Sequence record: NC_055781.1 | Reading direction: 5' to 3' (one strand) | From: Escherichia phage p000v | DNA: 64,000 nt | Part shown: piece after piece, positions 8,868 to 62,946 of the stretch | How positions within the stretch are numbered: position 1 is the first letter of the stretch | How the letters are laid out: every line of letters starts with the position of its first letter | The notes under the pieces: model-generated | Databases searched by the model: none | Seen by the model: only the letters and a program-made list of their open reading frames with translations | Told to the model about the DNA's origin: nothing | Made by a program: the position numbers and the translations under genes

Positions 8868-9602
8868 ATGGAGCTAATCTTTTTAAGTGGCATCAAACGT
8901 AGTGGTAAAGACACTACTGCTGATTACATCAATTCAAACTTTAAATCCGTAAAATACCAATTAGCATATCCAATTAAAGACGCTCTAGCAATAGCCTGGG
9001 GACGTAGGCATGCTGAAAATCCTGATGTATTCACAGAGTTGAAATACGAATACTTTGAAGGCATTGGATACGACCGTGAAACACCATTAAATCTCAATAA
9101 GTTGGATGTTATTGAATTATTGGAAGAAGCGCTAATTTATTTGCAAAGTCAATATTTACCAATTAATAATGTTAAAGTATTATCATCGTTAGAAGGTGGA
9201 TATTCATATCTAGATATTAAACCATATGAAGCCCTGCGTGAAGCTATAAATAATATCAACGACACATGGTCAATCCGCCGTCTTATGCAAGCCCTCGGTA
9301 CGGATGTTGTCGTTAATTTATTTGACCGTATGTATTGGGTTAAGCTTTTTGCATTAAACTATATGGATTATATTGGAAGTGATTTCGATTACTATGTCGT
9401 AACCGATACACGCCAAGTCCATGAAATGGAAACCGCTAGAGCGATGGGTGCCACAGTTATTCATGTGGTTCGCTCTGGTACGGAATCCACCGATAAACAT
9501 ATTACAGAAGCTGGGTTGCCTATTGAAGAAGGTGATTTAGTTATTACAAACGACGGCTCTTTAGAAGAGCTTTATTCTAAAATTGAAACAATCTTAAGGT
9601 AA
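8868..9602 (+). CDS. 1: deoxynucleoside monophosphate kinase gp1
   Basis: 244 aa; MELIFLSGIKRSGKDTTADY P-loop and extended similarity to T4 gp1. Confidence 0.93.
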   Translation: MELIFLSGIKRSGKDTTADYINSNFKSVKYQLAYPIKDALAIAWGRRHAENPDVFTELKYEYFEGIGYDRETPLNLNKLDVIELLEEALIYLQSQYLPINNVKVLSSLEGGYSYLDIKPYEALREAINNINDTWSIRRLMQALGTDVVVNLFDRMYWVKLFALNYMDYIGSDFDYYVVTDTRQVHEMETARAMGATVIHVVRSGTESTDKHITEAGLPIEEGDLVITNDGSLEELYSKIETILR

Positions 9603-12294: not shown

Positions 12295-12963
12295 ATGTTC
12301 CATTACACTTATAAAATAACAAATAAAATTAATAATAAAATCTATATAGGCGCTCATTCTACCGAAAATTTAGATGATGGATATATGGGTTCTGGTAAAT
12401 TATTAAAAAGAGCCCAAGACAAGTATGGTATAGAAAATTTTAATAAAGAAATTTTAGAATTCTTTGACACTAAAGAGCAGATGTTTGAAGCCGAGAAAAA
12501 TATCGTAAACGAAGAATTTTTGAATCGTTCTGACGTATATAATTTAAAACTTGGTGGCGAAGGTGGTTGGGACCATTTAAATACTTACGAATTTAATTAT
12601 AAAAAGAAAGAAGCCTCTATTAAAGGAGCCAAAGCTTTTAAAGAGAGATTTGATTCTGATGAAGTGCTTCAAGAAAAATATCGTAAAATGGGTTCAGAGA
12701 AATTAAAGCATCTGTGGACTTTACCTGAATACAGAGAAAAATTCTCTAGCACTAAGTCGTTTTTAAATAAAAATCATACTTCCGAAACTATTGCTAAAAT
12801 GAAAGATACCCACGCCAGGAACAAACACCAACAAGGCGAGAAAAATTCCCAGTTTGGTACTATGTGGATTCATTCATTAGAAGAAAAGAAATCTAAGAAA
12901 ATTAAGAAAACCGATCCTATTCCGGAAGGTTGGATTAAAGGCTATAAACTAAAATTTAAGTGA
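12295..12963 (+). CDS. GIY-YIG homing endonuclease (SegB-like, tRNA region)
   Basis: YKITNKINNKIYIGAHS...GSGKL GIY-YIG motif; adjacent to tRNA as T4 segB. Confidence 0.85.
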   Translation: MFHYTYKITNKINNKIYIGAHSTENLDDGYMGSGKLLKRAQDKYGIENFNKEILEFFDTKEQMFEAEKNIVNEEFLNRSDVYNLKLGGEGGWDHLNTYEFNYKKKEASIKGAKAFKERFDSDEVLQEKYRKMGSEKLKHLWTLPEYREKFSSTKSFLNKNHTSETIAKMKDTHARNKHQQGEKNSQFGTMWIHSLEEKKSKKIKKTDPIPEGWIKGYKLKFK

Positions 12964-16144: not shown

Positions 16145-16747
16145 ATGCGAAACCAAAATAATGATATTGACTCAATGTTCGAAGAGTTCCGAGATAAGGT
16201 AAATCCACCTACGTCTTTAGTTGATTCATTACGATATGTTGCAACTGGGCGTAAATGGTACTGGTCGTCTTCTTATGAGACCACCGAGAAAACAGCTAGC
16301 CATAGCAGAAAATCTTTATTGGCCCCGGGTATTATGATTCATGATATCGGAGCTATTGCTAAACTAGTTGCAGACCATGATATTAGATTCACTGATTTCG
16401 TTGCTCCTACGTGGTCTGTTTGTTGTTTAAACACTGAATGGGAATATATCAGCGAACGCTCTGAAGATTATTATGGTTTTAGAGATAAGCTTCTGAGGTC
16501 TAATATGTTTTATATCGATACAGAAGTTCTAGTCGATAATAAAAAATATTACTTTACGTTAATCATCGATTCTGAAACTATGTATGAAGGCAAGCCTTTG
16601 CTTAAAAGAGTTGATGCTTTAAGTGCTATTGATGCGCTTTATGAAACTATGGTTGTTAGTCCTAATTTCACTAACAATTTAATCCTTGAGCAATTTATTA
16701 TGGAATGTAGAGAATATGTCAAAGCCAACCCTATACATGCCAAGTAA
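16145..16747 (+). CDS. hypothetical protein
   Basis: Start at ATG 16145 with AAGGAG SD; 200 aa. Confidence 0.6.
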   Translation: MRNQNNDIDSMFEEFRDKVNPPTSLVDSLRYVATGRKWYWSSSYETTEKTASHSRKSLLAPGIMIHDIGAIAKLVADHDIRFTDFVAPTWSVCCLNTEWEYISERSEDYYGFRDKLLRSNMFYIDTEVLVDNKKYYFTLIIDSETMYEGKPLLKRVDALSAIDALYETMVVSPNFTNNLILEQFIMECREYVKANPIHAK

Positions 16748-23125: not shown

Positions 23126-23440
23126 ATGAAAACGTATAAAGAATTTATTGCAGAATCCGCCAACCAACGCGTTGAAGGTGGTTATATTTGGATTGAACAA
23201 GTTGAGCCACCGAGCCGCACTTCTACAGGTAAATGGAAAATTACCGTTGATGGTCCTGGTGGTAAACGTAGGACTCTTAAAGAAATTAACGGGTACTATG
23301 AAGAAGCTCTTTCGGATGCAGGAACTTACATGATGCAAATCATGATTAAAAACCCTGAAAACCGTTTTGCAGCTAAAGTCTTCCGCCGCATCGGTAATAA
23401 ACTTTATGATGCATACTCTAAAAACTTCCCTAAAGAATAA
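23126..23440 (+). CDS. internal protein (IPII-position, CTS leader MKTYKEFIAE)
   Basis: 104 aa basic protein with canonical CTS; position after denV as T4 ipII. Confidence 0.8.
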   Translation: MKTYKEFIAESANQRVEGGYIWIEQVEPPSRTSTGKWKITVDGPGGKRRTLKEINGYYEEALSDAGTYMMQIMIKNPENRFAAKVFRRIGNKLYDAYSKNFPKE

Positions 23441-23465: not shown

Positions 23466-24044
23466 ATGAAAACTTATAAAGAATTTATCGCCGAGGCCTT
23501 TGCAGGAAAAGCTCAAGGCATTAATAAGGACGAGTGGAATTATCGTGGCGGAAACGGCTTTGACCCTAAAACTGCTCCACTTGAACGATATCTAGCCACA
23601 AAAGCTTCTGATTTTAAAGCATTCGCTTGGGAAGGACTTCGCTGGCGTAACGATCTAAATATTGAAGTTGACGGACTCAAATTTGCTCATATTGAAGATG
23701 TTGTTGCTAGTAACTTAGATGCAGCTTTTGTTAAAGCCGACAGCGACCTTCGTCGCTGGAATTTAAAACTGTTCTCTAAACAAAAAGGCCCGAAGTTTGT
23801 GCCTAAAGCAGGTAAATGGGTTATTGATAATAAATTGGCTAAAGCTGTCAACTACGCTGGGCTTGAATTTGCCAAGCATAAATCATCATGGAAAGGTCTT
23901 GATGCAATGACTTTCCGTAAAGAATTTGCCGATGTTATGGCTAAAGGCGGCTTTAAGGCAGAAATAGATACCTCTAAAGGTACGTTTAAAGACGCTAATG
24001 TTCAGTACGCTTACGCCGTTGCTAATGCAGCCCGTGGTAATTAA
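23466..24044 (+). CDS. internal protein (IPIII-position, CTS leader MKTYKEFIAEA)
   Basis: 192 aa with canonical CTS; size and position as T4 ipIII. Confidence 0.8.
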   Translation: MKTYKEFIAEAFAGKAQGINKDEWNYRGGNGFDPKTAPLERYLATKASDFKAFAWEGLRWRNDLNIEVDGLKFAHIEDVVASNLDAAFVKADSDLRRWNLKLFSKQKGPKFVPKAGKWVIDNKLAKAVNYAGLEFAKHKSSWKGLDAMTFRKEFADVMAKGGFKAEIDTSKGTFKDANVQYAYAVANAARGN

Positions 24045-24046
24045 TA

Positions 24047-24068
24047 AGGCCTAAGTATAGGCCTATTT
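24047..24068 (+). terminator. terminator-like hairpin
   Basis: AGGCCT-aagtat-AGGCCT hairpin followed by ATTT. Confidence 0.45.
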
Positions 24069-24222
24069 ACATTTAAATAAAATGGGAACAACCTGGACCT
24101 CATGATTCTATGAGGGATTCCCGCCAACCTGTAATAAGGTCGAGCCCAAGTGCGGTAATGGGTAAATACAGAAATGGACAATTCATGCGCCACGGAATGG
24201 CCCAAACCTTAAGAGAAATAAT

Positions 24223-45385: not shown

Positions 45386-45457
45386 TATCTCGTGCTTTAA
45401 GATAGGTCTCTAAATATTATGATATAATAGACCTATGAATTGAGCCAAGAGGTACTT

Positions 45458-46015
45458 ATGACTGAACAAAAACCTAAAAATAACTATGTGAATAATAAAG
45501 AGCTTCTCGCCGCTATAATCGAGTGGAAAAAGGAGCTCTTAAATAATAAAGACCCAAACAAAATTATTCGTCAGAATGATACCATCGGTTTAGCAATTAT
45601 GCTTATCGCCGAAGGCCTGTCCAAACGTTTCAACTTTTCAGGATATACCCAGTCTTGGAAGCAGGAGATGATTGCAGATGGGATTGAAGCCTCTATTAAG
45701 GGACTTCATAATTTCGACGAAACTAAGTACAATAACCCACATGCATACATAACTCGAGCTTGTTTTAATGCTTTTGTCCAACGTATCAAAAAAGAACGTA
45801 AGGAAGTTGCAAAGAAATATAGTTACTTCGTTCATAATGTCTACGACAGTCATGACGATGATATGGTAGCGTTGGTAGATGAAACGTTTATTCAAGACAT
45901 CTACGATAAAATGACGCATTATGAAGAATCCGCTTATAAAGCTCCTGGGGCTGAAAAGAAGGAAGTTGTTAGCGATTCGCCTAGTTTGGATTTTTTATAT
46001 GAGGATGACAATTGA
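45458..46015 (+). CDS. 55: late-transcription sigma factor gp55
   Basis: 185 aa from [26 protein letters not shown]...; near-colinear with T4 gp55; AGAGG SD. Confidence 0.95.
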
Positions 46016-46214
46016 CATCTCTAACTACTTAGAAGAACCTTTTGACGAAGCAATCCCTTATTTGGTAAAACTGTTGGGTCGTGAATTTAAAATTAATTTT
46101 GACATCGACCCTTTGAACCCACATGACGTGTCATTTTCAATAAATGGGACTCCAGTTGAGTACGAGTTCTGTATTGAAGAGGATGGACGTTTTTATTTTA
46201 ATTTAATGAGATAA
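46005..46214 (+). CDS. hypothetical protein overlapping end of gene 55
   Basis: 69-aa frame [15 protein letters not shown]...; start uncertain (45999 or 46005). Confidence 0.35.
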
Positions 46215-46215
46215 T

Positions 46216-46539
46216 ATGACTACCGAGATTATTGAAAATAAAGAAGCAGAAGATGCAGTAGCTAAAATGCTACAAGAAATCCAAAAGAAAAATGAAGCTG
46301 AAGCACGTAAAAAATCCGAAAAGATTCTTAAAAAGAATCGTTTTGAACTAAACCGTCTTTATGCACATGCTCAAGAAGCAGCAATTCAAAACAACTTCGA
46401 AGCTTACGAATATGCTATTAAGAAATCTCGGGATATTCTACGACAACCATATAATGACAAGTTAATTAAAATCCAGTGGATTACTACTCGTCAGGCTATT
46501 GAGGACATCATTAATGGCGCTAGTTCAAACAAAGTTTAA
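46216..46539 (+). CDS. hypothetical protein
   Basis: 107-aa ORF. Confidence 0.55.
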   Translation: MTTEIIENKEAEDAVAKMLQEIQKKNEAEARKKSEKILKKNRFELNRLYAHAQEAAIQNNFEAYEYAIKKSRDILRQPYNDKLIKIQWITTRQAIEDIINGASSNKV

Positions 46540-46720
46540 ACGTCTGAAGCTGAACGCAGGGTTCTCTCTTAAATTGGGAGGTCCTCTTTGTGTTAAAATT
46601 TCTGAAAAGGAATATCACGACGGTTCTATTACAGAAATTTGTCCGCCTATTGTAAAGGCAGACCCAAAACAACTCGTATGGGTCGATTCATTTCAAGTTA
46701 AGAAATGGTGGAAACGATGA
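46514..46720 (+). CDS. hypothetical protein
   Basis: Start at MALVQTKFK with GAGGA SD; overlaps previous gene end. Confidence 0.45.
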   Translation: MALVQTKFKRLKLNAGFSLKLGGPLCVKISEKEYHDGSITEICPPIVKADPKQLVWVDSFQVKKWWKR

Positions 46721-46759
46721 GAGAAATTGATTTAGGCATTTTCTGAGAGGTGCTTATGC

Positions 46760-46933
46760 ATGACGAACATCCCGACTTCTGAAAATTTCGATAAAATCCG
46801 TAAAGGCAAAGCAGAAAGAATGAGACGTTTTAAAGAGTCTTATGATAAAGCTAAAGCCGAAGGAACTATTACGTACAAGCCCATTCGATTTAAAAGTTCA
46901 AATGAGCCTTTGTACGGTGTACTATGTGGATAG
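46760..46933 (+). CDS. small basic protein (57 aa)
   Basis: Not in track; MTNIPTSENFDKIRKGKAERMRRF...; ends at terminator stem. Confidence 0.4.
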   Translation: MTNIPTSENFDKIRKGKAERMRRFKESYDKAKAEGTITYKPIRFKSSNEPLYGVLCG

Positions 46934-46956
46934 GAACTCTTCGGAGTTCCTTTTTT
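46933..46956 (+). terminator. intrinsic terminator
   Basis: GGAACUC-UUCG-GAGUUCC hairpin followed by TTTTTT. Confidence 0.8.
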
Positions 46957-46979
46957 GCTTTATAAACGGATGATAGAAT
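46956..46979 (+). promoter_or_regulatory. possible MotA-dependent middle promoter (TGCTTTA box, TAGAAT -10)
   Basis: MotA-box-like TGCTTTA 11 nt upstream of TAGAAT; upstream of gene 47. Confidence 0.4.
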
Positions 46980-47002
46980 GAATTAACTAATGAGGAAATA
47001 AT

Positions 47003-48022
47003 ATGAAAATTTTGCACTTAGGCGACTTCCATATCGGAGTCAAACAAGACGACCCATGGGTCCAAGATATTCAACGTGATGGTATTCGTCAAGCAATTGA
47101 ATACTCTAAGAAACACGGGATTAAAACTTGGATTCAGTACGGTGATTGGTTTGACGTCCGTAAAGCAATAACACATCGTACAATGGAATTCAATCGTGAA
47201 ATCGTTGATATGATTTCTAAAGCAGGCATTCACGTTCATGTCACGATAGGAAACCATGACATGGCGTTTAAGAATACAATAACACCTAACACTGTTTCTG
47301 AATTGTTAACTCAATTTGAAAACTTTACTATTTACGAACATCCAACTACTGTAGATTTTGACGGATGTCTGATTGATATCGTTCCGTGGATGTGTGAAGA
47401 AAATACAGGTGAAATCTTAGAGCACATCAAGACTTCTTCTGCTGCGTATTGCGTTGGTCACTGGGAACTGAACGGCTTTTATTTCTATAAAGGAATGAAG
47501 TCTCATGGGCTTGAACCTGATTTCTTAAAGACCTATAAACAAGTCTGGTCTGGCCACTTCCACACAATCTCTGAAGCTGCTAACGTCAAATATATTGGGA
47601 CACCATGGACCCTTACTGCAGGTGACGAGAACGACCCACGTGGATTCTGGGTATTTGACACTGATGTTGAACGTATGGAATTTATTCCTAATGAAACAAC
47701 ATGGCATCGACGAATCACTTATCCATTTAAAGGCAAAATCAATTATTCTGATTATACTAATCTAGCCGTACGTGTTATAGTATCAGAAATTGATTCAGAG
47801 TTGACTAAATTTGAATCTGAACTTGAAAAAGTAGTTCACTCTCTTCGTATGGTTTCTAAAGTTGATAACAGTGTTGAATCTGATGACGACCAGGAAATCG
47901 AGATTAAATCACTTCAAGATATCATTAAAGAATATATTGACGCGATTCCAGATATCTCAGACGAAGACAGAGAAGCGCTGGTCAAATATTCCAACGAACT
48001 TTATATTGAGGCAACACAATGA
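47003..48022 (+). CDS. 47: recombination endonuclease subunit gp47 (Mre11-like)
   Basis: MKILHLGDFHIGV...GNHD calcineurin-like phosphoesterase motifs; 339 aa as T4 gp47. Confidence 0.93.
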   Translation: MKILHLGDFHIGVKQDDPWVQDIQRDGIRQAIEYSKKHGIKTWIQYGDWFDVRKAITHRTMEFNREIVDMISKAGIHVHVTIGNHDMAFKNTITPNTVSELLTQFENFTIYEHPTTVDFDGCLIDIVPWMCEENTGEILEHIKTSSAAYCVGHWELNGFYFYKGMKSHGLEPDFLKTYKQVWSGHFHTISEAANVKYIGTPWTLTAGDENDPRGFWVFDTDVERMEFIPNETTWHRRITYPFKGKINYSDYTNLAVRVIVSEIDSELTKFESELEKVVHSLRMVSKVDNSVESDDDQEIEIKSLQDIIKEYIDAIPDISDEDREALVKYSNELYIEATQ

Positions 48023-48276
48023 CTTTAGATGAATTTAACAATGCTGGGCTAGGGCTTGAAGTTGAAATAGACGTTAAAGATGATGATGGATTCGAGAACA
48101 CTATCAAGTATTGGATTGAGCCATTACGTGTTGAAGGCAATGAAGTTAAAGCAGTTCATGTCTACACCGACTGGGCTATTGAATTTAGCTTTAATATAAT
48201 GGACAACGATACTCCTGGCTCTATTCTTAAAATGGCTGAAGCATGTATCAAGGATGCGTATAATGACGAAGACTGA
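48019..48276 (+). CDS. hypothetical acidic protein
   Basis: 85-aa ORF between 47 and 46. Confidence 0.55.
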   Translation: MTLDEFNNAGLGLEVEIDVKDDDGFENTIKYWIEPLRVEGNEVKAVHVYTDWAIEFSFNIMDNDTPGSILKMAEACIKDAYNDED

Positions 48277-53643: not shown

Positions 53644-56355
53644 ATGAAAGAATTTTACTTAACGGTTGAACAGATTGGTGATTCAATTTTTGAACGTTAC
53701 ATCGATTCTAATGGCCGTGAACGTACTCGTGAAGTAGAATATAAACCATCACTGTTTGCTCATTGTCCGGAAAGTCAGGCTACGAAATATTTTGATATCT
53801 ACGGTAAGCCGTGTACTCGTAAACTATTCGCTAACATGCGTGATGCGTCTCAATGGATTAAACGCATGGAAGATATCGGACTTGAAGCACTTGGCATGGA
53901 CGATTTCAAATTAGCGTATTTGTCTGACACTTATAACTATGAAATCAAATACGACCATACAAAAATTCGTGTGGCTAACTTCGACATCGAAGTAACATCT
54001 CCGGATGGGTTCCCTGAGCCGTCACAAGCAAAACATCCTATTGATGCTATCACCCATTATGACTCAATTGACGACAGGTTCTACGTATTTGATCTATTGA
54101 ATTCTCCATATGGTAATGTAGAAGAATGGTCTATTGAAATCGCTGCTAAGCTTCAAGAACAAGGTGGTGATGAAGTTCCATCTGAAATTATCGATAAAAT
54201 CATTTATATGCCGTTCGATAACGAAAAAGAATTGTTGATGGAATATCTCAACTTCTGGCAACAGAAAACTCCTGTCATTTTGACTGGATGGAACGTTGAG
54301 TCATTTGATATTCCATATGTGTATAACAGAATCAAGAATATTTTTGGCGAATCTACTGCGAAACGTTTATCACCACATCGTAAAACTCGTGTTAAAGTTA
54401 TCGAAAACATGTATGGTTCTCGTGAAATCATTACATTGTTCGGTATCTCTGTTCTTGATTACATTGACCTTTACAAAAAATTCTCTTTTACCAATCAACC
54501 GTCGTATTCTCTGGATTACATTTCAGAATTTGAATTGAACGTTGGTAAACTGAAATATGACGGCCCTATTTCTAAGCTTCGTGAAAGCAATCACCAACGA
54601 TATATTTCTTATAACATCATCGACGTGTATCGTGTATTGCAAATTGATGCTAAGCGCCAGTTCATCAACTTGAGTTTGGACATGGGTTATTATGCTAAGA
54701 TACAGATTCAATCTGTGTTCAGCCCAATTAAAACATGGGATGCTATTATTTTTAATAGCCTTAAAGAGCAGAACAAGGTGATTCCACAAGGTCGTTCTCA
54801 CCCGGTTCAACCTTATCCTGGCGCTTTTGTTAAGGAACCTATTCCAAATCGATACAAATATGTAATGAGTTTCGACCTTACATCTCTGTATCCAAGTATT
54901 ATTCGCCAAGTGAATATTAGCCCAGAAACAATAGCAGGAACGTTTAAAGTAGCTCCATTGCATGATTATATTAACGCAATCGCTGAACGTCCTTCAGATG
55001 TGTACAGCTGCTCTCCTAATGGCATGATGTATTATAAAGACCGTGATGGTGTAGTTCCAACTGAAATCACTAAGGTCTTTAATCAACGTAAAGAACATAA
55101 AGGTTACATGCTTGCAGCTCAACGTAATGGTGAAATAATTAAAGAGGCATTGCATAATCCTAATCTTTCTGTTGACGAACCATTAGATGTTGATTATCGT
55201 TTCGACTTCACTGATGAGATTAAAGAAAAGATTAAAAAGTTGTCTGCTAAATCTCTTAATGAAATGTTGTTCAGAGCTCAACGTACTGAAGTTGCAGGTA
55301 TGACTGCACAAATTAACCGTAAATTGCTTATCAACTCACTTTATGGTGCACTTGGAAACGTTTGGTTCCGTTATTACGATTTGCGTAATGCAACTGCAAT
55401 CACAACATTTGGTCAAATGGCTTTACAGTGGATTGAACGTAAAGTTAATGAATATCTGAATGAAGTTTGTGGTACAGAAGGTGAAGCTTTCGTTCTTTAT
55501 GGTGATACAGACTCTATTTACGTATCTGCAGATAAAATTATTGATAAGGTTGGTGAATCTAAATTCCGTGATACCAACCATTGGGTGGACTTTTTAGATA
55601 AGTTTGCACGTGAACGTATGGAACCGGCTATTGATAGAGGTTTCCGTGAAATGTGTGAATACATGAACAATAAACAACACTTAATGTTCATGGACCGAGA
55701 AGCTATCGCTGGTCCTCCGCTCGGTTCTAAAGGTATTGGTGGATTCTGGACTGGTAAGAAACGTTATGCATTAAACGTGTGGGATATGGAAGGTACTCGT
55801 TACGCTGAGCCTAAACTCAAAATCATGGGTCTAGAGACTCAGAAATCTTCGACCCCTAAAGCAGTACAGAAAGCTCTTAAAGAATGTATTCGTCGTATGC
55901 TTCAAGAAGGTGAAGAATCATTACAAGAATATTTTAAAGAGTTTGAAAAAGAATTCCGTCAATTGAATTATATTAGCATCGCGTCGGTATCTTCTGCGAA
56001 TAACATTGCTAAATATGACGTTGGTGGATTCCCTGGTCCTAAATGCCCGTTCCATATTCGTGGAATTCTGACATATAACAGAGCTATCAAAGGTAATATT
56101 GATGCTCCACAAGTTGTAGAAGGCGAAAAGGTATACGTTCTGCCTTTACGTGATGGAAACCCGTTCGGTGATAAATGTATCGCATGGCCTTCTGGTACTG
56201 AAATCACAGATTTAATTAAAGACGACGTACTTCATTGGATGGACTACACTGTTCTCCTTGAGAAGACATTTATTAAACCACTTGAAGGATTCACATCAGC
56301 AGCGAAACTCGATTACGAGAAGAAAGCATCTCTGTTCGATATGTTCGATTTTTGA
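53644..56355 (+). CDS. 43: DNA polymerase gp43
   Basis: 903 aa; B-family motifs (DIEV exo, SLYPS, KKRYA, YGDTDS); length as recalled for RB69-type polymerase. Confidence 0.97.
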   Translation: MKEFYLTVEQIGDSIFERYIDSNGRERTREVEYKPSLFAHCPESQATKYFDIYGKPCTRKLFANMRDASQWIKRMEDIGLEALGMDDFKLAYLSDTYNYEIKYDHTKIRVANFDIEVTSPDGFPEPSQAKHPIDAITHYDSIDDRFYVFDLLNSPYGNVEEWSIEIAAKLQEQGGDEVPSEIIDKIIYMPFDNEKELLMEYLNFWQQKTPVILTGWNVESFDIPYVYNRIKNIFGESTAKRLSPHRKTRVKVIENMYGSREIITLFGISVLDYIDLYKKFSFTNQPSYSLDYISEFELNVGKLKYDGPISKLRESNHQRYISYNIIDVYRVLQIDAKRQFINLSLDMGYYAKIQIQSVFSPIKTWDAIIFNSLKEQNKVIPQGRSHPVQPYPGAFVKEPIPNRYKYVMSFDLTSLYPSIIRQVNISPETIAGTFKVAPLHDYINAIAERPSDVYSCSPNGMMYYKDRDGVVPTEITKVFNQRKEHKGYMLAAQRNGEIIKEALHNPNLSVDEPLDVDYRFDFTDEIKEKIKKLSAKSLNEMLFRAQRTEVAGMTAQINRKLLINSLYGALGNVWFRYYDLRNATAITTFGQMALQWIERKVNEYLNEVCGTEGEAFVLYGDTDSIYVSADKIIDKVGESKFRDTNHWVDFLDKFARERMEPAIDRGFREMCEYMNNKQHLMFMDREAIAGPPLGSKGIGGFWTGKKRYALNVWDMEGTRYAEPKLKIMGLETQKSSTPKAVQKALKECIRRMLQEGEESLQEYFKEFEKEFRQLNYISIASVSSANNIAKYDVGGFPGPKCPFHIRGILTYNRAIKGNIDAPQVVEGEKVYVLPLRDGNPFGDKCIAWPSGTEITDLIKDDVLHWMDYTVLLEKTFIKPLEGFTSAAKLDYEKKASLFDMFDF

Positions 56356-56395: not shown

Positions 56396-57031
56396 ATGAA
56401 AACTACACCAATCACTATCGCTATTGACGCAATCGTAAAACAAGCTTCATCTCTTGCCACTATGGCTAAAGTAATTAGTCAAAACTCTGCCCGATATAAT
56501 GCTATTCTTGAAACTCTTCGTCGCCCTGGACTGAGTAATTATGAAAGCCGAGTAATTATTACAGGTGTTGGTAAGAACGCTAATATCGCAACTAAAGCTT
56601 CCGAGACTTTTGCTTCACTAGGTATTCCTAGCATGTATTTGAACACCGGGCATTATTCTCATGGCGACGCAGGATTTATTGCACCTAATGATGTATTAGT
56701 TCACATCAGTCGTTCTGGTAAGACTGAAGAAATGATAGGTGTTGCTAAACATCTTCGTATGATTCGTCCTCAGGTTAAACAGATTCTGTTACATTGTAAC
56801 CCTGACATTCCGCAAGAATACGAAGCTCTTTTTGATTATACGTTCTGTACAGGCATCGCGGTAGAGGTTGATGAGAATTCTCTGGCTCCGACCATGTCCA
56901 CTACATTGTTGTTAGCGCTTATCGATACGTTTGCTATCAACCTTTCGTCTGAACGTGGATTTACCTCTAATGACTTCCTTAAGTTCCACCCTGGTGGTGC
57001 ACTAGGTGCCATGTTACGAGGCGAACAATGA
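56396..57031 (+). CDS. SIS-domain sugar-phosphate isomerase (KdsD/GutQ-like, no CBS domains)
   Basis: VIITGVGKNANIATKASETFASLGIPS, HGDAGF, ISRSGKTEE, HPGGALGAM motifs parallel arabinose-5-phosphate isomerase SIS domain. Confidence 0.8.
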   Translation: MKTTPITIAIDAIVKQASSLATMAKVISQNSARYNAILETLRRPGLSNYESRVIITGVGKNANIATKASETFASLGIPSMYLNTGHYSHGDAGFIAPNDVLVHISRSGKTEEMIGVAKHLRMIRPQVKQILLHCNPDIPQEYEALFDYTFCTGIAVEVDENSLAPTMSTTLLLALIDTFAINLSSERGFTSNDFLKFHPGGALGAMLRGEQ

Positions 57032-57171
57032 AAGCAATAACAATAGGACTTTTACTATTGATGCTTGTCATGACTATCTACTGGAGCTTAACGGCTCCAG
57101 TAATGATTCCGACTCTTATAATCGGATGGATTATGATTGGACTACAAGCAAAGTATGAATGCTTTAACTAG
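57028..57171 (+). CDS. small membrane peptide (47 aa)
   Basis: Not in track; ATGA-coupled to SIS gene; two hydrophobic segments; position recalls T4 imm. Confidence 0.4.
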   Translation: MKAITIGLLLLMLVMTIYWSLTAPVMIPTLIIGWIMIGLQAKYECFN

Positions 57172-57212
57172 AATAGTGTACAATACACCTACTTACCAAT
57201 GAGGACTTCAAC

Positions 57213-58898
57213 ATGAAAAAAGCTGTTATTCTTGGTGCTGGACTGGCAACTCGTTTGTATCCAATAACGCACCATATTCCTAAGGTGCTTGTTAACTATA
57301 AACAAGACACTATTCTGAGCAATTTGTATACAATTTATTCTGACCTTGGCGCAGATGAAATTATTGTAGTAGTTCATTCAAAATTTGCTGAAACTGTTCG
57401 AGCTTATTGCGAGCAAGAAGGGTTCAATGTGACTATTCGTACAGTTGATGAAGCGTATGGTTCTGCTTATGCTCTTGCTAAATTATACAAAGATTTAGAT
57501 GGCCATAACGTAATTGTTAACTGGTGTGATATTATTCCTGACTTTGGTTCATGGTCTTGGAATGTTAACGCAATCTATGTTAAGGGTGATGAATGTCGAT
57601 ATAATTTCGATGGTGAAAATATCACTAACGTAGGTTCAACAGGTGGTAATGTTGTAGGAATTTATCAGTTCAAAGACTGGGAATTCTACATGGGTTCTAC
57701 TGATGAGGAAATTCACGAATACTGCAAAGGTCGTGATTTCGTAGAATTCCTTTACGGCAGTGCATTCAATAAATCAGAGCTTATGAATCTAATTGATTTA
57801 GGTGATATGCCTAAACTTGAAAAGGCTCATGAAGTTCGTGAACTGAATCGTAGTTTTAATGCAGTTGAAATTGGCGAAGAAACTGTAACTAAATTCGCGT
57901 TAACCGAACAAGGTCGAGCTCTTCAAAAAGATGAGATTTCATGGTATTTGAAAGTGAAATCAGATTCAGTTCCTCAGTTAGTTTCGGTAAATGAAAATAA
58001 TTTTGAAATGGAACGTATTAAAGGTAAGCCGGCATTTGAATATATTAAATCCAAATCAAGTCTTGCTCGTCCACAAATTGTTGATGCAATTTTAGATGCA
58101 CTGAAATTCAGCACGGACACTTATTTTGTAAGTCCTGAAACTGTTCGCCGTGATTTCACTAAAGAGTTCTATACGAAAGTTATTGATCGTTGTGAAAGCA
58201 TTCAGCCATTGATTGATTCATTTGGTAAAATCACACGTGTGAACTACACTAAGATTGGACGTCTGAAGCCAATGTTGAAACAAGCTTTAGAACATCTTAT
58301 TCGTTATCATAACCGTTCTCAGGGACAGTACTCTGTTATTCATGGTGACCCGAACTTCAGTAATACTATGATTACCGATAACGGCGAAGTCAAGTTTATC
58401 GACCCTCGTGGATATTTTGGTGAAACCAAGATTTACGGGCCAAAATTGTATGATGAAGCTAAAGTGCTTTATGCTGTTTCAGGTTATGATGAATTCAATG
58501 CTAATCCGACCTGGGGTCAGTTTACTATTGATGAAACAACTTGTAATGTGACTATTAACATCAATCCATTAGTTTACAAATATGGAAAGATGAGTTCGTT
58601 TAACGAGTATCATCATTTGGCAGTAGCAATTATCTGGATTGCATTAGGTGGTTATTTCAAGAATAATCCACTTAAAGCGGTTGCCGCATATTATAAAGGT
58701 ATGGAACTTCTGACTAAGCAATTACGTAACATGGGCCGTGTACTTCAAGACGGCTCTATTAGTTATGACGTAGCAGAACCTGTAACGGCTACTCTGATTA
58801 CAAAAAATCCTGGTAAATGGGTACTAACTGATAAAGAAACTGGTGTTTCCTATCGTCCAATCGGCGGCGATATCACTCATCAATGGGAACGAATCTAA
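57213..58898 (+). CDS. bifunctional sugar-1-phosphate nucleotidyltransferase / APH-like sugar kinase
   Basis: N-terminal ILGAGLATRLYPIT (RmlA/GalU-type); C-terminal HGDPNFSNTMI...VKFIDPRG (aminoglycoside/choline-kinase fold); 561 aa. Confidence 0.8.
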   Translation: MKKAVILGAGLATRLYPITHHIPKVLVNYKQDTILSNLYTIYSDLGADEIIVVVHSKFAETVRAYCEQEGFNVTIRTVDEAYGSAYALAKLYKDLDGHNVIVNWCDIIPDFGSWSWNVNAIYVKGDECRYNFDGENITNVGSTGGNVVGIYQFKDWEFYMGSTDEEIHEYCKGRDFVEFLYGSAFNKSELMNLIDLGDMPKLEKAHEVRELNRSFNAVEIGEETVTKFALTEQGRALQKDEISWYLKVKSDSVPQLVSVNENNFEMERIKGKPAFEYIKSKSSLARPQIVDAILDALKFSTDTYFVSPETVRRDFTKEFYTKVIDRCESIQPLIDSFGKITRVNYTKIGRLKPMLKQALEHLIRYHNRSQGQYSVIHGDPNFSNTMITDNGEVKFIDPRGYFGETKIYGPKLYDEAKVLYAVSGYDEFNANPTWGQFTIDETTCNVTININPLVYKYGKMSSFNEYHHLAVAIIWIALGGYFKNNPLKAVAAYYKGMELLTKQLRNMGRVLQDGSISYDVAEPVTATLITKNPGKWVLTDKETGVSYRPIGGDITHQWERI

Positions 58899-59284
58899 TG
58901 CACCGTGTAGAAAACATGCTTAATCTTTGTTTTGATGTCGATGATTGTATAACAGAGTGGAATAACAATCGTGATTACGTGAACTTCAAACCAGACGTCG
59001 AAATGGTGTCTGCCATTAATGCCCTGTATGATGCAGGGCATACCATAACGCTTTACACTGCCCGTGGTATGAAGTCGGTAGGTCCTGGTCGTATAGCAAT
59101 TGACATTCTCCCAAGTCTGATTCAGAACTTGGAAAACATTGGTTTGAAGTACCATAATTTGCTAACACATAAACCAGTATATGATTGGATTATCGACGAC
59201 AAAGCTATGCGTCCTGACGAATTCAAAGCTCTTATGAATAAAGGCGAATTCGAAACATTTAAATCATATAAACCAAATCTATAA
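58898..59284 (+). CDS. HAD-superfamily phosphatase-like protein
   Basis: N-terminal FDVDDCIT (DxD motif I) and later K...DD; start taken at ATG overlapping upstream stop (TAATG). Confidence 0.55.
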   Translation: MHRVENMLNLCFDVDDCITEWNNNRDYVNFKPDVEMVSAINALYDAGHTITLYTARGMKSVGPGRIAIDILPSLIQNLENIGLKYHNLLTHKPVYDWIIDDKAMRPDEFKALMNKGEFETFKSYKPNL

Positions 59285-59341
59285 TAATTTAAGTAAGACC
59301 TGCAAAAACCATCGCATCAATTAACGCGAGATGCAAAAAAA

Positions 59342-60502
59342 ATGAATACTTTTAAAATCGGAACGAATTTTGATTTAGCTCTTCTTGATAAAATCGTAGA
59401 GCTCAATAAAACCTATCCTAATAGCTTGATAAACGAAGTATATGGCTCTACAAGAGAAATGGCTTTTGTAGCAGCCAGACCTGATTTTAGGCTTCCTGAC
59501 GTTGACAAAAAGATGTTAGAAGACTACGTTAAACGTTGTAACGAATTAGGTATTTGCTTTAACTATACACTCAACACGATAAATCCTGGTTCAAAAAGAG
59601 AACTAGTTGAGTGGAAGAAGAAAGCTATTCAGGATTATGTTCAGTATCTTTGGTCAATAGGCGTATGGCGTATTACTATCGCTAACCCTGTTGTTATGGA
59701 AATTGTTCGTGAAGTCAATAAAGATATTGAGATTGAAGTTTCAACAATTCTACATGTCGATGCGGTAACTCAAATCAAATACTTACATGACCAATATAAC
59801 ATCAAAAAGGTCTGTTGCGGAATTCATAAGAACCGTTCAGTTTCTTTCCTGAAGCGTGCAGCAGAGTTTTGCAATAAGAACAATATAATATTTGAAGTTC
59901 TTGTAAATGAGTTCTGTTCTAATGCTGGTAAAGGGTATACAACACATTGTAGTTATCGTGACTCTTGCTATATTTTCCATAGTACTGATGTTACCGCTGA
60001 TGATGCTAAATCCTTAAATGGATATCCTATGCAGCACTGTATTAAAGCTCGTGATACAGACCCATTTAACTGGTTGAGAACTCGTTTTGTTCGTCCTCAA
60101 GATTTGAAACTTTATAATGATATTGGTATCACTCAATTCAAAGTTTCAGGACGTACAGGTAGCACAGACTACATTTTGAAAGTTCTTGAAGCATACGCTT
60201 CTGAAAAGTTTGAAGGTAATTTGTTAGAACTGTGGAAGCCTTTAGAGACTATTTTCACTCTTGAAAATGAGACTGAGTTTTCACATACAGTAAATATTGA
60301 AACCTCTTTGTTAGATGGCTTTTTAGAAAAAAGGTGGTTCAGACATCCAGATTTTGATTGTGCTAATGAAATCTGTGGGTCAACGTGTACATATTGTGAA
60401 AGGTATTATAAACGTCAATTATCTAAAAACGGGTTAGCAGAAAACTCCATATCTATTATTGATATAACTAACTCTGATGACGCTTTGAGGTACCCGGAAT
60501 GA
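59342..60502 (+). CDS. Cys-rich protein, possible peptidase-U32-like Fe-S enzyme
   Basis: EVLVNEFCSNAGKGYTTHCSYRDSCYIF and C-terminal CANEICGSTCTYC clusters; resemblance to U32 signature is partial. Confidence 0.6.
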   Translation: MNTFKIGTNFDLALLDKIVELNKTYPNSLINEVYGSTREMAFVAARPDFRLPDVDKKMLEDYVKRCNELGICFNYTLNTINPGSKRELVEWKKKAIQDYVQYLWSIGVWRITIANPVVMEIVREVNKDIEIEVSTILHVDAVTQIKYLHDQYNIKKVCCGIHKNRSVSFLKRAAEFCNKNNIIFEVLVNEFCSNAGKGYTTHCSYRDSCYIFHSTDVTADDAKSLNGYPMQHCIKARDTDPFNWLRTRFVRPQDLKLYNDIGITQFKVSGRTGSTDYILKVLEAYASEKFEGNLLELWKPLETIFTLENETEFSHTVNIETSLLDGFLEKRWFRHPDFDCANEICGSTCTYCERYYKRQLSKNGLAENSISIIDITNSDDALRYPE

Positions 60503-60738
60503 TTTCTAGAAAAAGTTTTAATTATAAACTTAACGAAGAGATTTTGACTATGAAACTGAACACTAACGAACAAATTCTTAAAAAGGCCCTTATGGGCCTG
60601 TTTGAAACCAAAGCGGCTAAAGTGATTAAAGAACCTGTTCAATTGGAATACTACGCTGATGCATTTCTTCATAGTGTTCTTGGAAGTATCGATGCTGAAG
60701 CTTTACGTTATATCAACATTGTCAAGAAATTCAAATAA
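60499..60738 (+). CDS. hypothetical protein
   Basis: 79-aa ORF, ATGA-coupled. Confidence 0.5.
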   Translation: MISRKSFNYKLNEEILTMKLNTNEQILKKALMGLFETKAAKVIKEPVQLEYYADAFLHSVLGSIDAEALRYINIVKKFK

Positions 60739-60780
60739 GCTTTACGAATTGAGTATATAATAAATTGTATTGAGGTAAAC

Positions 60781-61497
60781 ATGGGAAAACATAACACAAT
60801 GAAATATATCAAAGCCGCAGATTTTCAAACCGCATTTAAAGCAGTCAATCGTGAAATTTTAGAAAACCCGGAATTCGTAACTGATTCTCGTATTGGACGT
60901 TGTAATGAAATTGGGTCTATGACAGTAGTTGTTGACACTCCATCATCATTCAAAATGACCGACCCACGTATTAACCGCATCTCTTATGAATATGCCGAAG
61001 ACTTCTGGAAGTTTATGATTTCTGGTGGTACCAACGCAGAAGAAGCGTTTAAGGCATATCCTAATGTCGCTAAATTTATTTCTAAACCAAAATCAGATGT
61101 TTTGCCGGCGAACTTCAACACTTTCTATGGTCCTCGCATTGCGGCCCAATTACCAACTCTTCTAAAAGAACTTAAAGAGAAGCCTAACTCCCGAAGAGTT
61201 GTGTTCCAAATTCTAGAAAGTTCTGATCAGGCTTTGCTTGATTCGGACGAAACACTTGAATATCCATGTACTGACTCAGTAACTTATTATATTCGTGATG
61301 GTAAGCTTTATACCCACTGTCATATGCGTTCTCAGAACTGTGCTGTTGTTATGCAGTTGGATTTTTATCTCCAAGGAAAATTACTTCATTATATCGCTAA
61401 CGAATGCGGTGTAGAAGTTGGTGATTATACTCATACCATGGTAAGTGCCCATGTGTTTGAACGTGATTTTGATTATGTTAAAGGATTCCTTGACTAA
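60781..61497 (+). CDS. 42: pyrimidine hydroxymethylase, dCMP hydroxymethylase gp42-like (thymidylate synthase fold)
   Basis: YPCTDSVTYYIRDGKL and HMRSQNCAVVMQLDFY align with T4 gp42 catalytic Cys region and Asp specificity residue as recalled. Confidence 0.75.
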   Translation: MGKHNTMKYIKAADFQTAFKAVNREILENPEFVTDSRIGRCNEIGSMTVVVDTPSSFKMTDPRINRISYEYAEDFWKFMISGGTNAEEAFKAYPNVAKFISKPKSDVLPANFNTFYGPRIAAQLPTLLKELKEKPNSRRVVFQILESSDQALLDSDETLEYPCTDSVTYYIRDGKLYTHCHMRSQNCAVVMQLDFYLQGKLLHYIANECGVEVGDYTHTMVSAHVFERDFDYVKGFLD

Positions 61498-62396
61498 TGG
61501 CTATTTTCCGCGTACCAATCTTGAGTATGCGGTCTTATGAAACTGGACAGTATGCTATCCTTAAGGATGGCAACTTCCAACTTCATTTGCACCGTGCTAA
61601 TCCGGGTGATGTGATTACATATCCACGTAATGCATCTGATATTAAAGAATGCGAACGTCTTTTCCCAGAATTTAAGTTTGTTCCATTATGGTATAAAGAT
61701 AACGCGTATAACACTCGTAAATATTTCTGGACTGAAAATGAATTTGTGGTTGATTCATTAATTGATTATTATGATTGTGATTTTCTAATCACAGATATCA
61801 CTGGTTATGGTGGCGCTTTTGATGTGGAATTCAATTTCAATATCACTGCAGACCCTAATAAACCACGTTTTTATATTGATGAATTCTTAAAAACCGACAT
61901 GTTGTCTGTTAATCGTTCACTTCAAACTACTGTGTTGAATGAACGTCAAAAAGAAGTGCTGGTTAACGCAGGTGCAGATGGTAATAAGATTATCGTAACG
62001 CAGAAAGTTATACGTCCTTCCATCATGCAGCGTCTTGTAGGTGATTTGGCTCCTATTCATCTAGATGGTATTTTTCATCCATTTCGAATTAGTGACCCAT
62101 GTTATCGTTTTGAACAAGTGGTTGAATGTGCAATTCAATTAGGTCAACCGCTTTATATAACCGATCCAAATAATAGCTTCGACAGAAATAAGTATCCTGA
62201 AGAAGCGCTGATTCGAATTTTTAAACCAACTAAAACTGAGTACTATCAAATTCTTAAAGGACGTCCGAAAATTCAATATTTCGAAAATCCTGAAGAAGTA
62301 TTCCATCCAGGTCTTGGTGAGTTCATCTACTTTAATGCTTTAATTTCTTCGCCGTATAATATACCTAAATACGAAGATGTCGTAATCGAGGAATAA
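61497..62396 (+). CDS. hypothetical protein in beta-glucosyltransferase position (candidate DNA glycosyltransferase)
   Basis: 299-aa ORF between gp42-like gene and uvsX; no motif recognised; function inferred from synteny only. Confidence 0.6.
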   Translation: MAIFRVPILSMRSYETGQYAILKDGNFQLHLHRANPGDVITYPRNASDIKECERLFPEFKFVPLWYKDNAYNTRKYFWTENEFVVDSLIDYYDCDFLITDITGYGGAFDVEFNFNITADPNKPRFYIDEFLKTDMLSVNRSLQTTVLNERQKEVLVNAGADGNKIIVTQKVIRPSIMQRLVGDLAPIHLDGIFHPFRISDPCYRFEQVVECAIQLGQPLYITDPNNSFDRNKYPEEALIRIFKPTKTEYYQILKGRPKIQYFENPEEVFHPGLGEFIYFNALISSPYNIPKYEDVVIEE

Positions 62397-62397
62397 A

Positions 62398-62946
62398 ATG
62401 GCTAAAATTATTTTAGTAGATGGCCCGGATAATGCCGGTAAAACAACTTTCATTAATGACATAATGGAAATTAGTGAAAGATATGTAAAGATTGATTTCC
62501 CTAAACGAACAGTTGATGGACGTTTCGATGTTAAGTCTCGAAATGAAGTTGGCTGTTTCGAAACGATGTTGAATTATTTAGACCCTACTAAGATTTATCT
62601 GTTAGACCGTGGATATATTAGTAACTGGGTTTATGGACGTATTCGACAAGATGCGGACTCGATTCTTGACGTTTATGAACAGGACTATGTTCGTCTTTGC
62701 CAAAACCATGATGTGTTCACAATTATTTTAACACGTAACGAAATGACTGAAAGTTTTGAAGACGACCTTATTACTTTGTCTTCATTCGGTTTTAATACAG
62801 TCATTTCACATTTTGAAGAGTTTGCAATTCATAACAAAATCCAAACATATCAATTACTTAATCATGATGGTGCTAACAAAGTTATAGGATTTAATGCAAG
62901 CGAACGTAATGGTTTGATTACAGAAATCATCAAATGGGCTCGTTAA
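62398..62946 (+). CDS. P-loop kinase-like protein
   Basis: Walker A GPDNAGKTT near N-terminus; 182 aa; dNK/thymidylate-kinase-like size. Confidence 0.65.
   Translation: MAKIILVDGPDNAGKTTFINDIMEISERYVKIDFPKRTVDGRFDVKSRNEVGCFETMLNYLDPTKIYLLDRGYISNWVYGRIRQDADSILDVYEQDYVRLCQNHDVFTIILTRNEMTESFEDDLITLSSFGFNTVISHFEEFAIHNKIQTYQLLNHDGANKVIGFNASERNGLITEIIKWAR

Follow-up and report, generated by a model that had tools for sequence, protein, structure and literature searches.

Genes 55 and 47 are separated by 987 bp (46016-47002) in the stretch of Escherichia phage p000v analysed here (64,000 nucleotides of record NC_055781.1, referred to as "the window"), and the genes and signals of the interval, its two flanking genes, the modification cluster and gene 1 all lie on the plus strand. 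On the left, gene 55 (45458-46015) encodes the late sigma factor, with 90.7% amino acid identity to T4 gp55 and 99.5% to RB69 gp55; on the right, gene 47 (47003-48022) encodes the SbcD-like nuclease subunit (Pfam Metallophos; 75.8% identity to T4 gp47 and 100% to RB69 gp47). Four small ORFs fill the space between them, each with one match to a PHROG of unknown function. The first, an a-gt.5 homologue of 71 aa (45999-46214; 46.6% identity to T4 a-gt.5 and 100% to RB69p070; Pfam DUF5491, 1.4e-12; PHROG 1169), overlaps the 3' end of gene 55; its start is annotated at 46005 in RB69 and FP43, giving 69 aa, while T4 a-gt.5 aligns from 45999. It is followed by homologues of a-gt.4 (46216-46539, 107 aa; 57.7% identity to the T4 protein; Pfam DUF2654, 1.6e-27; PHROG 951), a-gt.3 (46514-46720, 68 aa; 69.2%; PHROG 1648, 9.8e-34) and a-gt.2 (46760-46933, 57 aa; 75.9%; Pfam DUF5486, 4.5e-28; PHROG 2140), all three of unknown function.

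The sizes given for these ORFs in the initial annotation (69, 107, 68 and 57 aa) match exactly, and no ORF longer than 107 aa occurs in the interval on either strand. Only 69 bp lie between the a-gt.2 homologue and gene 47, with a hairpin and a MotA-type middle promoter-like site inside them, so that a gene of about 400 codons is absent from this position. T4 a-gt, mobB and 47.1 gave no match in the interval, a repeat scan of 45400-47100 returned short two-copy matches only, with no remnants of a-gt or mobB, and an Rfam scan of 45800-47200 found nothing at E <= 1. The claim that no alpha-glucosyltransferase gene lies between 47 and 55 is thus borne out; the interval holds the a-gt.5, a-gt.4, a-gt.3 and a-gt.2 homologues and no other gene.

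This is an observation of gene content and was judged by synteny, not by chance statistics. At least 80% of window 45400-48100 is covered by 145 phage records, each as a single collinear match, and the same 55-47 layout is annotated in both RB69 and vB_Eco_mar005P1. The RB69 interval (RB69p067-p070) has the same four ORFs at the same lengths and the same 69-bp gap before gene 47; over the 987 nt the two sequences are 97.7% identical and gap-free, with point differences only, and the a-gt.2 homologues share 94.7% protein identity. By its sequence the window is that of a Mosigvirus (RB69-type), and its interval has the form that is usual in Mosigvirus for the T4 55-47 region, with the four small early/middle genes a-gt.5 to a-gt.2 retained. 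The a-gt.N names are positional only, since these small genes persist in phages without a-gt.

A putative hairpin-promoter module and the possible history of the slot

The T4 a-gt locus is homologous to and collinear with the window in its flanking genes and in the four small a-gt.N ORFs, and the hairpin and Mot-box module toward gene 47 is common to both. T4 has in addition 2.25 kb that carry the HNH homing endonuclease gene mobB, the 400-aa alpha-glucosyltransferase, the 46-aa 47.1 and a second hairpin-promoter module. By blastn, homology to T4 ends at window position 46966 (T4 38702) and restarts at 47001 (T4 36449), leaving an empty site of 34 bp (46967-47000) as the counterpart of T4 38701-36450 (mobB, a-gt, 47.1). 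The same empty alpha-gt slot is found in the Enterobacter phage CC31 (Karamvirus), where the order is 55, a-gt.5, a-gt.4, a-gt.3, a small ORF, one module and 47.

A terminator scan identified the hairpin as intrinsic-terminator-like, with an 8-bp stem, a UUCG loop and a following T run (46932-46951); the RNA folds at -13.9 kcal/mol (z = -4.4), and none of 200 shuffled sequences was equally stable. Upstream of gene 47, pattern matching located a MotA-box middle-promoter-like site consisting of TGCTTTA, 11 nt and TAGAAT (46956-46979). The window holds 20 matches to the Mot-box pattern where 4.7 are expected, an enrichment that 0 of 100 shuffles attained. The strict pattern of hairpin, Mot box and -10 box has a single match there. 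Since at least one match also arose in 22 of 100 shuffles, we rejected it as a repeated family within the window; for the same reason the promoter call rests on conservation across genera and not on statistics. T4 and Mineola have homologous hairpins behind both a-gt.2 and a-gt, and CC31 has one before gene 47.

The stretch 46932-46979 combines a stem-loop with a TGCTT Mot box and a correctly spaced -10 box, which is the architecture of a PmSL as defined in PMC4122927 and of the PeSL/PmSL cassettes of T4-like phages in general (Arbiol 2010; Comeau 2014). As with those cassettes, the position of the window element coincides exactly with the edge of an indel that separates related genomes. We infer that it is a PmSL-like terminator-promoter module, predicted both to terminate transcription and to drive gene 47. 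PmSLs were described from vibriophage nt-1; the window element is a single copy, and its part in recombination is putative.

Such a part would account for the empty slot if an ancestral alpha-gt cassette had been deleted by recombination between near-identical flanking hairpin and Mot-box modules, leaving one hybrid module behind. We regard this as a real possibility, if one that falls somewhat short of probable. A UUCG hairpin with a (T)GCTTTA box stands on each side of a-gt in T4 and in Klebsiella phage Mineola (Jiaodavirus), whereas the window, at the site of its indel relative to T4, and CC31 have one module only (in the window, the one match to the strict pattern). The window module equals the T4 upstream copy through TTGCTTTATAAA, and the bases that follow (CGGA..TGATAGAATGA) resemble the T4 downstream copy (CGGAGTTTGATATAATGA), as a hybrid would; modules of this kind are documented mediators of indels (PMC4122927). 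The a-gt proteins of T4 and Mineola are 66% identical, near the values for the neighbouring gp47 (71%) and gp55 (77%), a sign that the gene may have been in the slot for a long time, and the window's gp47 and gp55, at 76% and 91%, resemble their T4 counterparts more than those of Mineola do. However, the modules share a core of only about 8-12 nt, and insertion through the same modules would give the same pattern, so that the direction of the event is not fixed. CC31 is likewise without a-gt, and a second loss would be needed to explain it. T-even genomes are, moreover, mosaic (T4 gp43 has 61.5% identity to its window counterpart but 78% to that of CC31), which makes gene-by-gene identities a poor guide to phylogeny.

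Search for glucosyltransferase genes

Homologues of a-gt are carried by 657 phage records and homologues of b-gt by 126. In the window, however, T4 a-gt (400 aa) gave nothing better than E = 0.016 by tblastn, and T4 b-gt (351 aa) nothing better than E = 1.9. The whole-genome check was made on the two closest complete genomes, FP43 and RB69, out of about 150 Mosigvirus records; FP43 aligns with 60.6 kb of the window (mean identity 96.9%) and RB69 with 60.0 kb (95.3%). In these two complete genomes the best E was 0.04 for a-gt and 3.7 or worse for b-gt, and a phmmer search of every ORF in the window and in FP43 stayed at E = 0.15 or above. The best window match to a-gt (16232-16411, 27.5% identity over 69 aa) was rejected as chance: the ORF beneath it, of 200 aa, matches PHROG 2607 end to end, corresponds to RB69 e.5 and is the one that reaches E = 0.15 by phmmer. 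The initial annotation had named an alpha-gt or beta-gt homologue elsewhere in the genome as the finding that would overturn it; none appeared in the window, nor in FP43 and RB69 over their full length. That p000v has no glucosyltransferase elsewhere in its genome is thus supported, for 64 kb by direct reading and for the remainder by analogy with two complete relatives.

The initial annotation had also taken the empty alpha-gt slot, together with the unrelated protein in the beta-gt slot, as a sign that hmC is not glucosylated in the T4 manner. The alpha-gt slot is indeed empty, but it is not evidence by itself. CC31 differs from the window in having a true gp42 (68% identity to T4), a b-gt (49%) and, between gene 42 and uvsX, another glucosyltransferase; it keeps glucosyltransferases despite its empty slot, so that an empty alpha-gt slot alone does not mean that there is no glucosylation. 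The conclusion itself is nevertheless supported, by the failure to find either a-gt or b-gt together with the presence of an RB69-like arabinose and 5-hydroxycytosine (5hoC) cluster.

The modification cluster and the probable chemistry of the DNA

A whole cluster for the arabinosyl-5-hydroxycytosine pathway lies at 56396-62946. It begins with an arabinose-5-phosphate isomerase gene (56396-57031; equivalent to RB69 gp55, 96.2% identity) whose product matches Pfam SIS and the NCBIfam families KpsF/GutQ (8.5e-32) and KdsD (3.4e-30). [quoted passage not shown] Enzymes of the gp52:53/AfhE type make UDP-arabinofuranose, a function taken from PMC13326640. A HAD-like sugar phosphatase follows (58883-59284; equivalent to RB69 gp51, 98.5% identity, and to HY126 AfhF), with matches to an NCBIfam capsule biosynthesis phosphatase (1.9e-13) and PHROG 1238. 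These three genes for UDP-arabinofuranose (56396-59284) are together 96-100% identical to RB69 gp55, gp52:53 and gp51.

Beyond them lie a gene for a peptidase-U32-family protein of unknown pathway role (59342-60502; equivalent to RB69 gp50) and an ORF of 79 aa that is found in Mosigvirus only (60499-60738), has no Pfam match and fills the slot occupied by chorismate mutase in other genera. The position of gene 42 is taken by a thymidylate-synthase homologue (60781-61497; Pfam Thymidylat_synt), the equivalent of the 5hodCMP synthase RB69 gp48, with 98.7% identity to that protein and 24.8% to T4 gp42. Adjoining it, in the beta-gt slot, is the equivalent of RB69 gp46:47 (61497-62396), a proposed first arabinosyltransferase for which a fold search showed the GT-B fold; a sequence search of this 299-aa transferase family against PDB chains returned nothing. 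The last gene of the cluster (62398-62946), ahead of uvsX (63046 onward), encodes a thymidylate-kinase-like nucleotide kinase (PHROG 761 thymidylate kinase, 9.7e-45; 98.4% identity to RB69 gp45). Away from the cluster, gene 1 (8868-9602, 244 aa) encodes a dNMP kinase equivalent to RB69 gp159, in the position of the deoxynucleoside monophosphate kinase of FP43.

The window thus holds a homologue from the 5hodCMP synthase branch, the genes for UDP-arabinofuranose synthesis and a GT-B transferase adjoining the synthase, as in the RB69-type system. Compared with the Afh pathway of RB69, HY126, Bas46/47 and DLP3, its gene order is that of RB69 gp55 to gp45, with proteins 91-100% identical, a range that holds across the region as well as for the cluster proteins (gp45-gp55). 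The RB69 reference splits gp46/47 and gp52/53, which its authors attribute to sequencing errors; both ORFs are intact in the window. Bas47 (AlbertHofmann) is 96.7% identical to the window in DNA over the cluster, while DLP3 is without the U32 gene and the small ORF that follows it and has two extra transferases. A homologue of RB69 gp3, the second arabinosyltransferase, is present in FP43 at 85748-86845 (99.5% identity); it has no match within the window, and its region, next to rIIA, falls outside. The domain assignments in the cluster fit the pathway and so support a reading in terms of arabinosyl-5-hydroxycytosine.

In RB69-type phages cytosine is replaced by arabinosylated 5-hydroxycytosine (Thomas 2018; Lee et al. 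2026). RB69 was reported to have no glucosyltransferase and to carry arabinose instead of glucose in its DNA, under the name ara-hmC (PMC6024577); its DNA contains mono- and di-arabinosylated 5-hydroxycytosine, and the base is not hmC (PMC13326640). That work presents MS and NMR evidence for Araf-5hodC, for the activity of gp48 and for the pathway, with nucleoside ions of the Ara-5hodC types at m/z 376.13 and 508.18 and a base fragment at 128.05, and demonstrates experimentally that RB69 gp48 is a 5hodCMP synthase and that the gp159 kinase acts on 5hodCMP; single transferases showed no activity on 5hoC DNA, and the first arabinosyl transfer was not reconstituted in vitro (PMC13326640). That RB69-like coliphages carry arabinosylated 5-hydroxycytosine and are without T4-type glucosyltransferases was published in 2018 and refined in 2025-2026.

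We consider it very probable that p000v is a standard RB69-type phage that carries the pathway for arabinosyl-5hoC instead and makes no glucosyl-hmC, so that neither an alpha- nor a beta-glucosyltransferase is needed. The present analysis shows the gene content and its synteny, that a-gt and b-gt are missing, that the protein in the beta-gt slot has a GT-B fold, and that the phage is nearly identical to RB69; the chemistry and the enzyme activities are taken from published experiments on RB69 and HY126, and p000v is inferred by analogy to behave like RB69. If it does, the flavin- and O2-dependent thymidylate-synthase homologue (60781-61497) would convert dCMP to 5-hydroxy-dCMP, which would be phosphorylated by the gene 1 kinase (8868-9602) and incorporated by the DNA polymerase. 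The isomerase, kinase/uridylyltransferase and phosphatase (56396-59284) would lead from ribulose-5-phosphate to UDP-arabinofuranose, and the GT-B transferase (61497-62396), with the second transferase beside rIIA outside the window, would place one or two arabinoses onto the 5-OH.

Two other readings can be set against this one. The modification might be ara-hmC, the form originally put forward for RB69, and not arabinose placed directly on 5-hydroxycytosine; the name goes back to Thomas et al. 2018 (PMC6024577) and was based on the detection of arabinose and on the gene 42-like thymidylate-synthase homologue. The published RB69 data make this very unlikely, as the MS/MS base fragment lies at m/z 128.05 where hmC would give 142.06, the NMR HMBC joins Araf C1 to cytosine C5, and 5hodC, with 18O taken up from O2, is the product of RB69 gp48, to which the window protein is 98.7% identical (PMC13326640). 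Still more improbable, to the point that we give it hardly any weight, is that an alpha-gt or beta-gt gene has moved into the approximately 105 kb outside the window and that the phage still glucosylates hmC. The window is 64 kb of the genome, and accessory genes of T-even phages do change places among hyperplastic regions (PMC2839356, PMC4122927), but the complete FP43 and RB69 sequences, at 95-97% identity to the window, offered nothing better than E = 0.04. The window has, besides, a full pathway for arabinose and 5hoC and, in place of a true gp42, the homologue with 24.8% identity to T4 gp42; a phage with no hmC would have no substrate for glucosylation.

For annotation, it follows that the gene 42 homologue of RB69-type phages should not be labelled a dCMP hydroxymethylase. 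RB69-type phages also differ from T4 in the restriction, CRISPR and type IV systems that they resist or succumb to.

The U32-family gene and chorismate mutase

The U32 gene (59342-60502) lies directly upstream of the 5hodCMP synthase gene. No other protein of the cluster is as well conserved as its product, which is 76-88% identical among Escherichia, Yersinia, Proteus and Shewanella phages. The U32 protein has the domain and fold of the U32 family in common with the Fe-S hydroxylases RlhA, TrhP and UbiU-UbiV. It also has many invariant cysteines: ten are invariant in 22 U32 homologues (C158, C177, C192, C203, C209, C233, C340, C345, C349 and C352), with a C-terminal cluster as in RlhA, the enzyme that makes 5-hydroxycytidine and requires prephenate. 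The spacing of these cysteines is unlike the published 4Fe-4S motif CX6CX15CX3/4C, similarity to the E. coli U32 enzymes is weak (profile E values of 1e-5 to 4e-3 against four sequences), and a sequence search of the ORF against PDB chains found nothing.

In 51 phage records from at least 10 host genera, a CM_2 chorismate mutase gene (Pfam 6.7e-10) stands directly downstream of the U32 gene. The product of chorismate mutase is prephenate, and the pairing indirectly suggests a prephenate-dependent, O2-independent cytosine hydroxylase. The U32 gene is missing from 57 phages of Acinetobacter, a strict aerobe, that carry the synthase and the transferase, and it is precisely the module of the U32 gene and the following ORF that is absent from DLP3. 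On the other hand, about 40 Escherichia phages with the pathway are also without the U32 gene, and chorismate mutase is absent from Mosigvirus, including this window. The 79-aa ORF (60499-60738) was considered as a diverged chorismate mutase and, on the evidence at hand, rejected, as BLASTP, Pfam at E <= 10 and hhalign revealed no similarity (hhalign gave a probability of 0.1 against the Marfavirus chorismate mutase); its family is narrow, no homologue falling below 73% identity, and includes truncated copies.

We tentatively put the U32 protein forward as a candidate RlhA/TrhP-like, Fe-S- and prephenate-dependent C5 hydroxylase, which would let the phage make 5-hydroxycytosine independently of O2 in the anoxic gut, a role that the protein may well not have. 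The U32 route may run parallel to the O2- and flavin-dependent thymidylate-synthase homologue; the TrhP and TrhO pathways for ho5U in tRNA are a precedent for such a dual route. If the proposal is true, the U32 protein, with chorismate mutase in other phages, would be a second hydroxylase that explains how gut phages obtain 5hoC without O2, and prephenate-dependent hydroxylation by U32 proteins would reach DNA precursors, beyond RNA and quinones.

Gene content between genes 55 and 47

The window is oriented in reverse of the T4 map, and its plus strand carries gene 55 (45458-46015; 90.7% amino acid identity to T4), four small ORFs and gene 47 (47003-48022; 75.8%), in that order. The small ORFs, all on the plus strand, are homologues of T4 α-gt.5 (46005-46214, 69 aa, or 71 aa from 45999, where the alignment to T4 α-gt.5 starts; 47% identity), α-gt.4 (46216-46539, 107 aa; 58%), α-gt.3 (46514-46720, 68 aa; 69%) and α-gt.2 (46760-46933, 57 aa; 76%); the initial annotation had their sizes and coordinates exactly right, as ORF coordinates and homology to T4 show. 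All four fall into PHROGs of unknown function, with DUF5491, DUF2654 and DUF5486 as the Pfam assignments among them. Neither strand of the interval holds an ORF longer than 107 aa, and scans of the region gave no Rfam match and no notable repeats.

The layout is identical in RB69, the type member of Mosigvirus, where the interval is 97.7% identical over 987 nt, gap-free, and the surrounding proteins are 91-100% identical (gp43, 99.7%). Escherichia phage FP43 is 99.4% identical in this region, and 145 Mosigvirus phage records are collinear with it. Over the whole window, coverage is 60.6 kb for FP43 (mean identity 96.9%) and 60.0 kb for RB69 (95.3%).

In T4 the same interval additionally contains mobB (an HNH homing endonuclease), α-gt (400 aa) and 47.1. 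By blastn, homology to T4 extends from upstream of gene 55 to 46966 (T4 38702) and restarts at 47001 (T4 36449), so that 34 bp stand for 2.25 kb of T4, and the claim that no α-glucosyltransferase gene lies between 47 and 55 is confirmed. The α-gt.2 to α-gt.5 homologues are kept in Mosigvirus, and α-gt.3 to α-gt.5 in the Karamvirus CC31, without α-gt; the names are positional, and the function of these genes is probably unrelated to glucosylation.

Glucosyltransferase searches and the replacement cluster

We searched with T4 α-gt and β-gt against the window and the complete assembled FP43 and RB69 genomes for a copy elsewhere; the best tblastn E values were 0.016 for the window and 0.04 for the two whole genomes, and phmmer against all ORFs of at least 60 aa in the window and FP43 reached 0.15 at best. 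The sole weak match sits in an e.5-type ORF and was rejected as chance. Across the phage collection, α-gt homologues occur in 657 records (about 90-100% identity in Tequatrovirus, about 66% in Klebsiella Jiaodavirus) and β-gt homologues in 126.

A 6.5-kb cluster absent from T4 separates gene 43 from uvsX in the window and corresponds to RB69 gp55 to gp45: arabinose-5-phosphate isomerase (56396-57031; gp55), a 47-aa ORF (57028-57171; no RB69 equivalent given), a bifunctional nucleotidyltransferase/kinase (57213-58898; gp52:53), a phosphatase (58883-59284; gp51), a U32-family protein (59342-60502; gp50), a 79-aa ORF (60499-60738; no RB69 equivalent given), a thymidylate-synthase homologue (60781-61497; gp48), a 299-aa protein (61497-62396; gp46:47) and a thymidylate-kinase-like protein (62398-62946; gp45). 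The gene 42 homologue is 98.7% identical to RB69 gp48 versus 24.8% to T4 gp42. RB69 DNA carries arabinose instead of glucose, and RB69 has no glucosyltransferase gene (Thomas et al., 2018, PMC6024577). Its cytosines were identified by MS/MS and NMR as α-Araf- and β-Araf-3-α-Araf-5-hydroxycytosine, with gp48 as a 5hodCMP synthase dependent on flavin and O2, and gp55, gp52:53 and gp51 as the predicted UDP-Araf pathway (Lee et al., 2026, PMC13326640). The ORFs at 57213-58898 and 61497-62396 are intact in the window and each in two in the RB69 reference (gp52/53 and gp46/47), which agrees, at the level of sequence, with the published view that these splits are sequencing errors.

The empty α-gt slot is not informative by itself, because CC31 has the same slot (55, α-gt.5, α-gt.4, α-gt.3, one small ORF, a single hairpin-promoter module, 47) and yet, unlike the window, has retained a genuine gp42 (68% identity to T4), β-gt (49%) and a second glucosyltransferase. 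The further proposal that the phage does not glucosylate hydroxymethylcytosine in the T4 manner is nevertheless supported by the replacement cluster, the searches and the RB69 literature combined, rather than by the interval alone; for RB69 and related phages, both the observation and its interpretation were known before.

Gene 43 DNA polymerase (53644-56355) is 61.5% identical to T4 gp43, alongside 90.7% for gp55 and 75.8% for gp47, whereas in CC31, a more distant genus, gp43 is 78% identical to T4. The switch to another modified base may have been accompanied by divergence of both the polymerase and the gene 42 homologue.

The U32-family gene and chorismate mutase

RB69 gp50 has one table entry, without discussion, as a “sugar or heterocycle reductase” (Lee et al., 2026, PMC13326640). 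Known U32 proteins are Fe-S hydroxylases: RlhA forms 5-hydroxycytidine in 23S rRNA and requires prephenate (PMC5727448), TrhP uses prephenate to form ho5U in tRNA, alongside the O2-dependent TrhO (PMC6599085), and UbiU and UbiV act on quinones, which they hydroxylate without O2 (PMC6747719). Since RlhA and TrhP both hydroxylate C5 in a prephenate-dependent manner, the phage protein may, by analogy, provide a second, prephenate-dependent and O2-independent route to 5-hydroxycytosine. Ten of its cysteines are invariant, and it keeps 76-88% identity between phages whose hosts are distant.

In Klebsiella phage PWKp16 (locus at 4501-5903 of its record, L014) a chorismate mutase ORF overlaps the U32 stop codon (Pfam CM_2, 6.7e-10), and such a gene adjoins the thymidylate-synthase homologue, downstream of U32, in 51 phage records spanning ten or more host genera. 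The Mosigvirus slot holds the unrelated 79-aa ORF, which has no similarity to chorismate mutase; it occurs in Mosigvirus only, at 73-97% identity (neighbours, 98-100%), with several metagenomic copies cut short at 47-58 aa.

The 5hodCMP synthase is found in 341 phage records and so is the first transferase, with counts that agree genus by genus; the U32 gene is found in 220, which include every record from Klebsiella, Proteus and Yersinia and 135 of the 175 from Escherichia. The list of genera for U32, whose smallest entry has three records, does not include Acinetobacter (57 records with both synthase and transferase). In DLP3, which has an arabinosyl-5-hydroxycytosine pathway, the phosphatase gene directly adjoins that of the synthase, so that exactly the U32/small-ORF module is absent there. 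Our literature search, which did not extend to He et al. (2026) and Mahler et al. (2025), found nothing linking phage U32, chorismate mutase and this pathway.

Origin of the empty slot and other variable regions

The 69-bp gap between α-gt.2 and gene 47 contains a UUCG-loop hairpin resembling a terminator (46932-46951; -13.9 kcal/mol, z = -4.4) and a MotA-type middle-promoter-like site (46956-46979; TGCTTTA, 11 nt, TAGAAT), a composite termed PmSL by Comeau et al. (PMC4122927). The Mot-box pattern is enriched in the window (20 matches versus 4.7 expected), and the combined pattern occurs once. In T4 and Klebsiella phage Mineola each side of α-gt has a module made up of a UUCG hairpin, then (T)GCTTTA and then a -10 box; the window and CC31 have one module each.

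The α-gt cassette could have been lost from Mosigvirus by recombination between the two modules, leaving a clean deletion. The window module matches the T4 upstream copy through TTGCTTTATAAA and resembles the downstream copy thereafter, and deletion through such modules has been proposed for PeSL/PmSL elements; the divergence of α-gt between T4 and Mineola (66% identity), close to that of gp47 (71%) and gp55 (77%), also fits long residence in the slot followed by Mosigvirus loss. However, insertion via the same modules would leave the same pattern and these genomes are mosaic, so we put forward loss as a tentative reading, somewhat short of an even chance.

Two GIY-YIG Seg-like homing endonuclease ORFs (6659-7309, 216 aa; 12295-12963, 222 aa) are 37% and 53% identical to T4 SegA, and since megablast matches their segments to neither FP43 nor RB69 they look, from sequence comparison, like recent mobile insertions.

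The ORFs at 23126-23440 and 23466-24044 both start with MKTYKEFIAE, which we take to be the capsid-targeting sequence of T4 internal proteins. Most of the second (23492-24123) has no megablast match in RB69, nor do its first 660 bases in FP43. Modified DNA is protected from type IV restriction by internal proteins such as T4 IPI*, so these two ORFs may be variable anti-restriction cargo.
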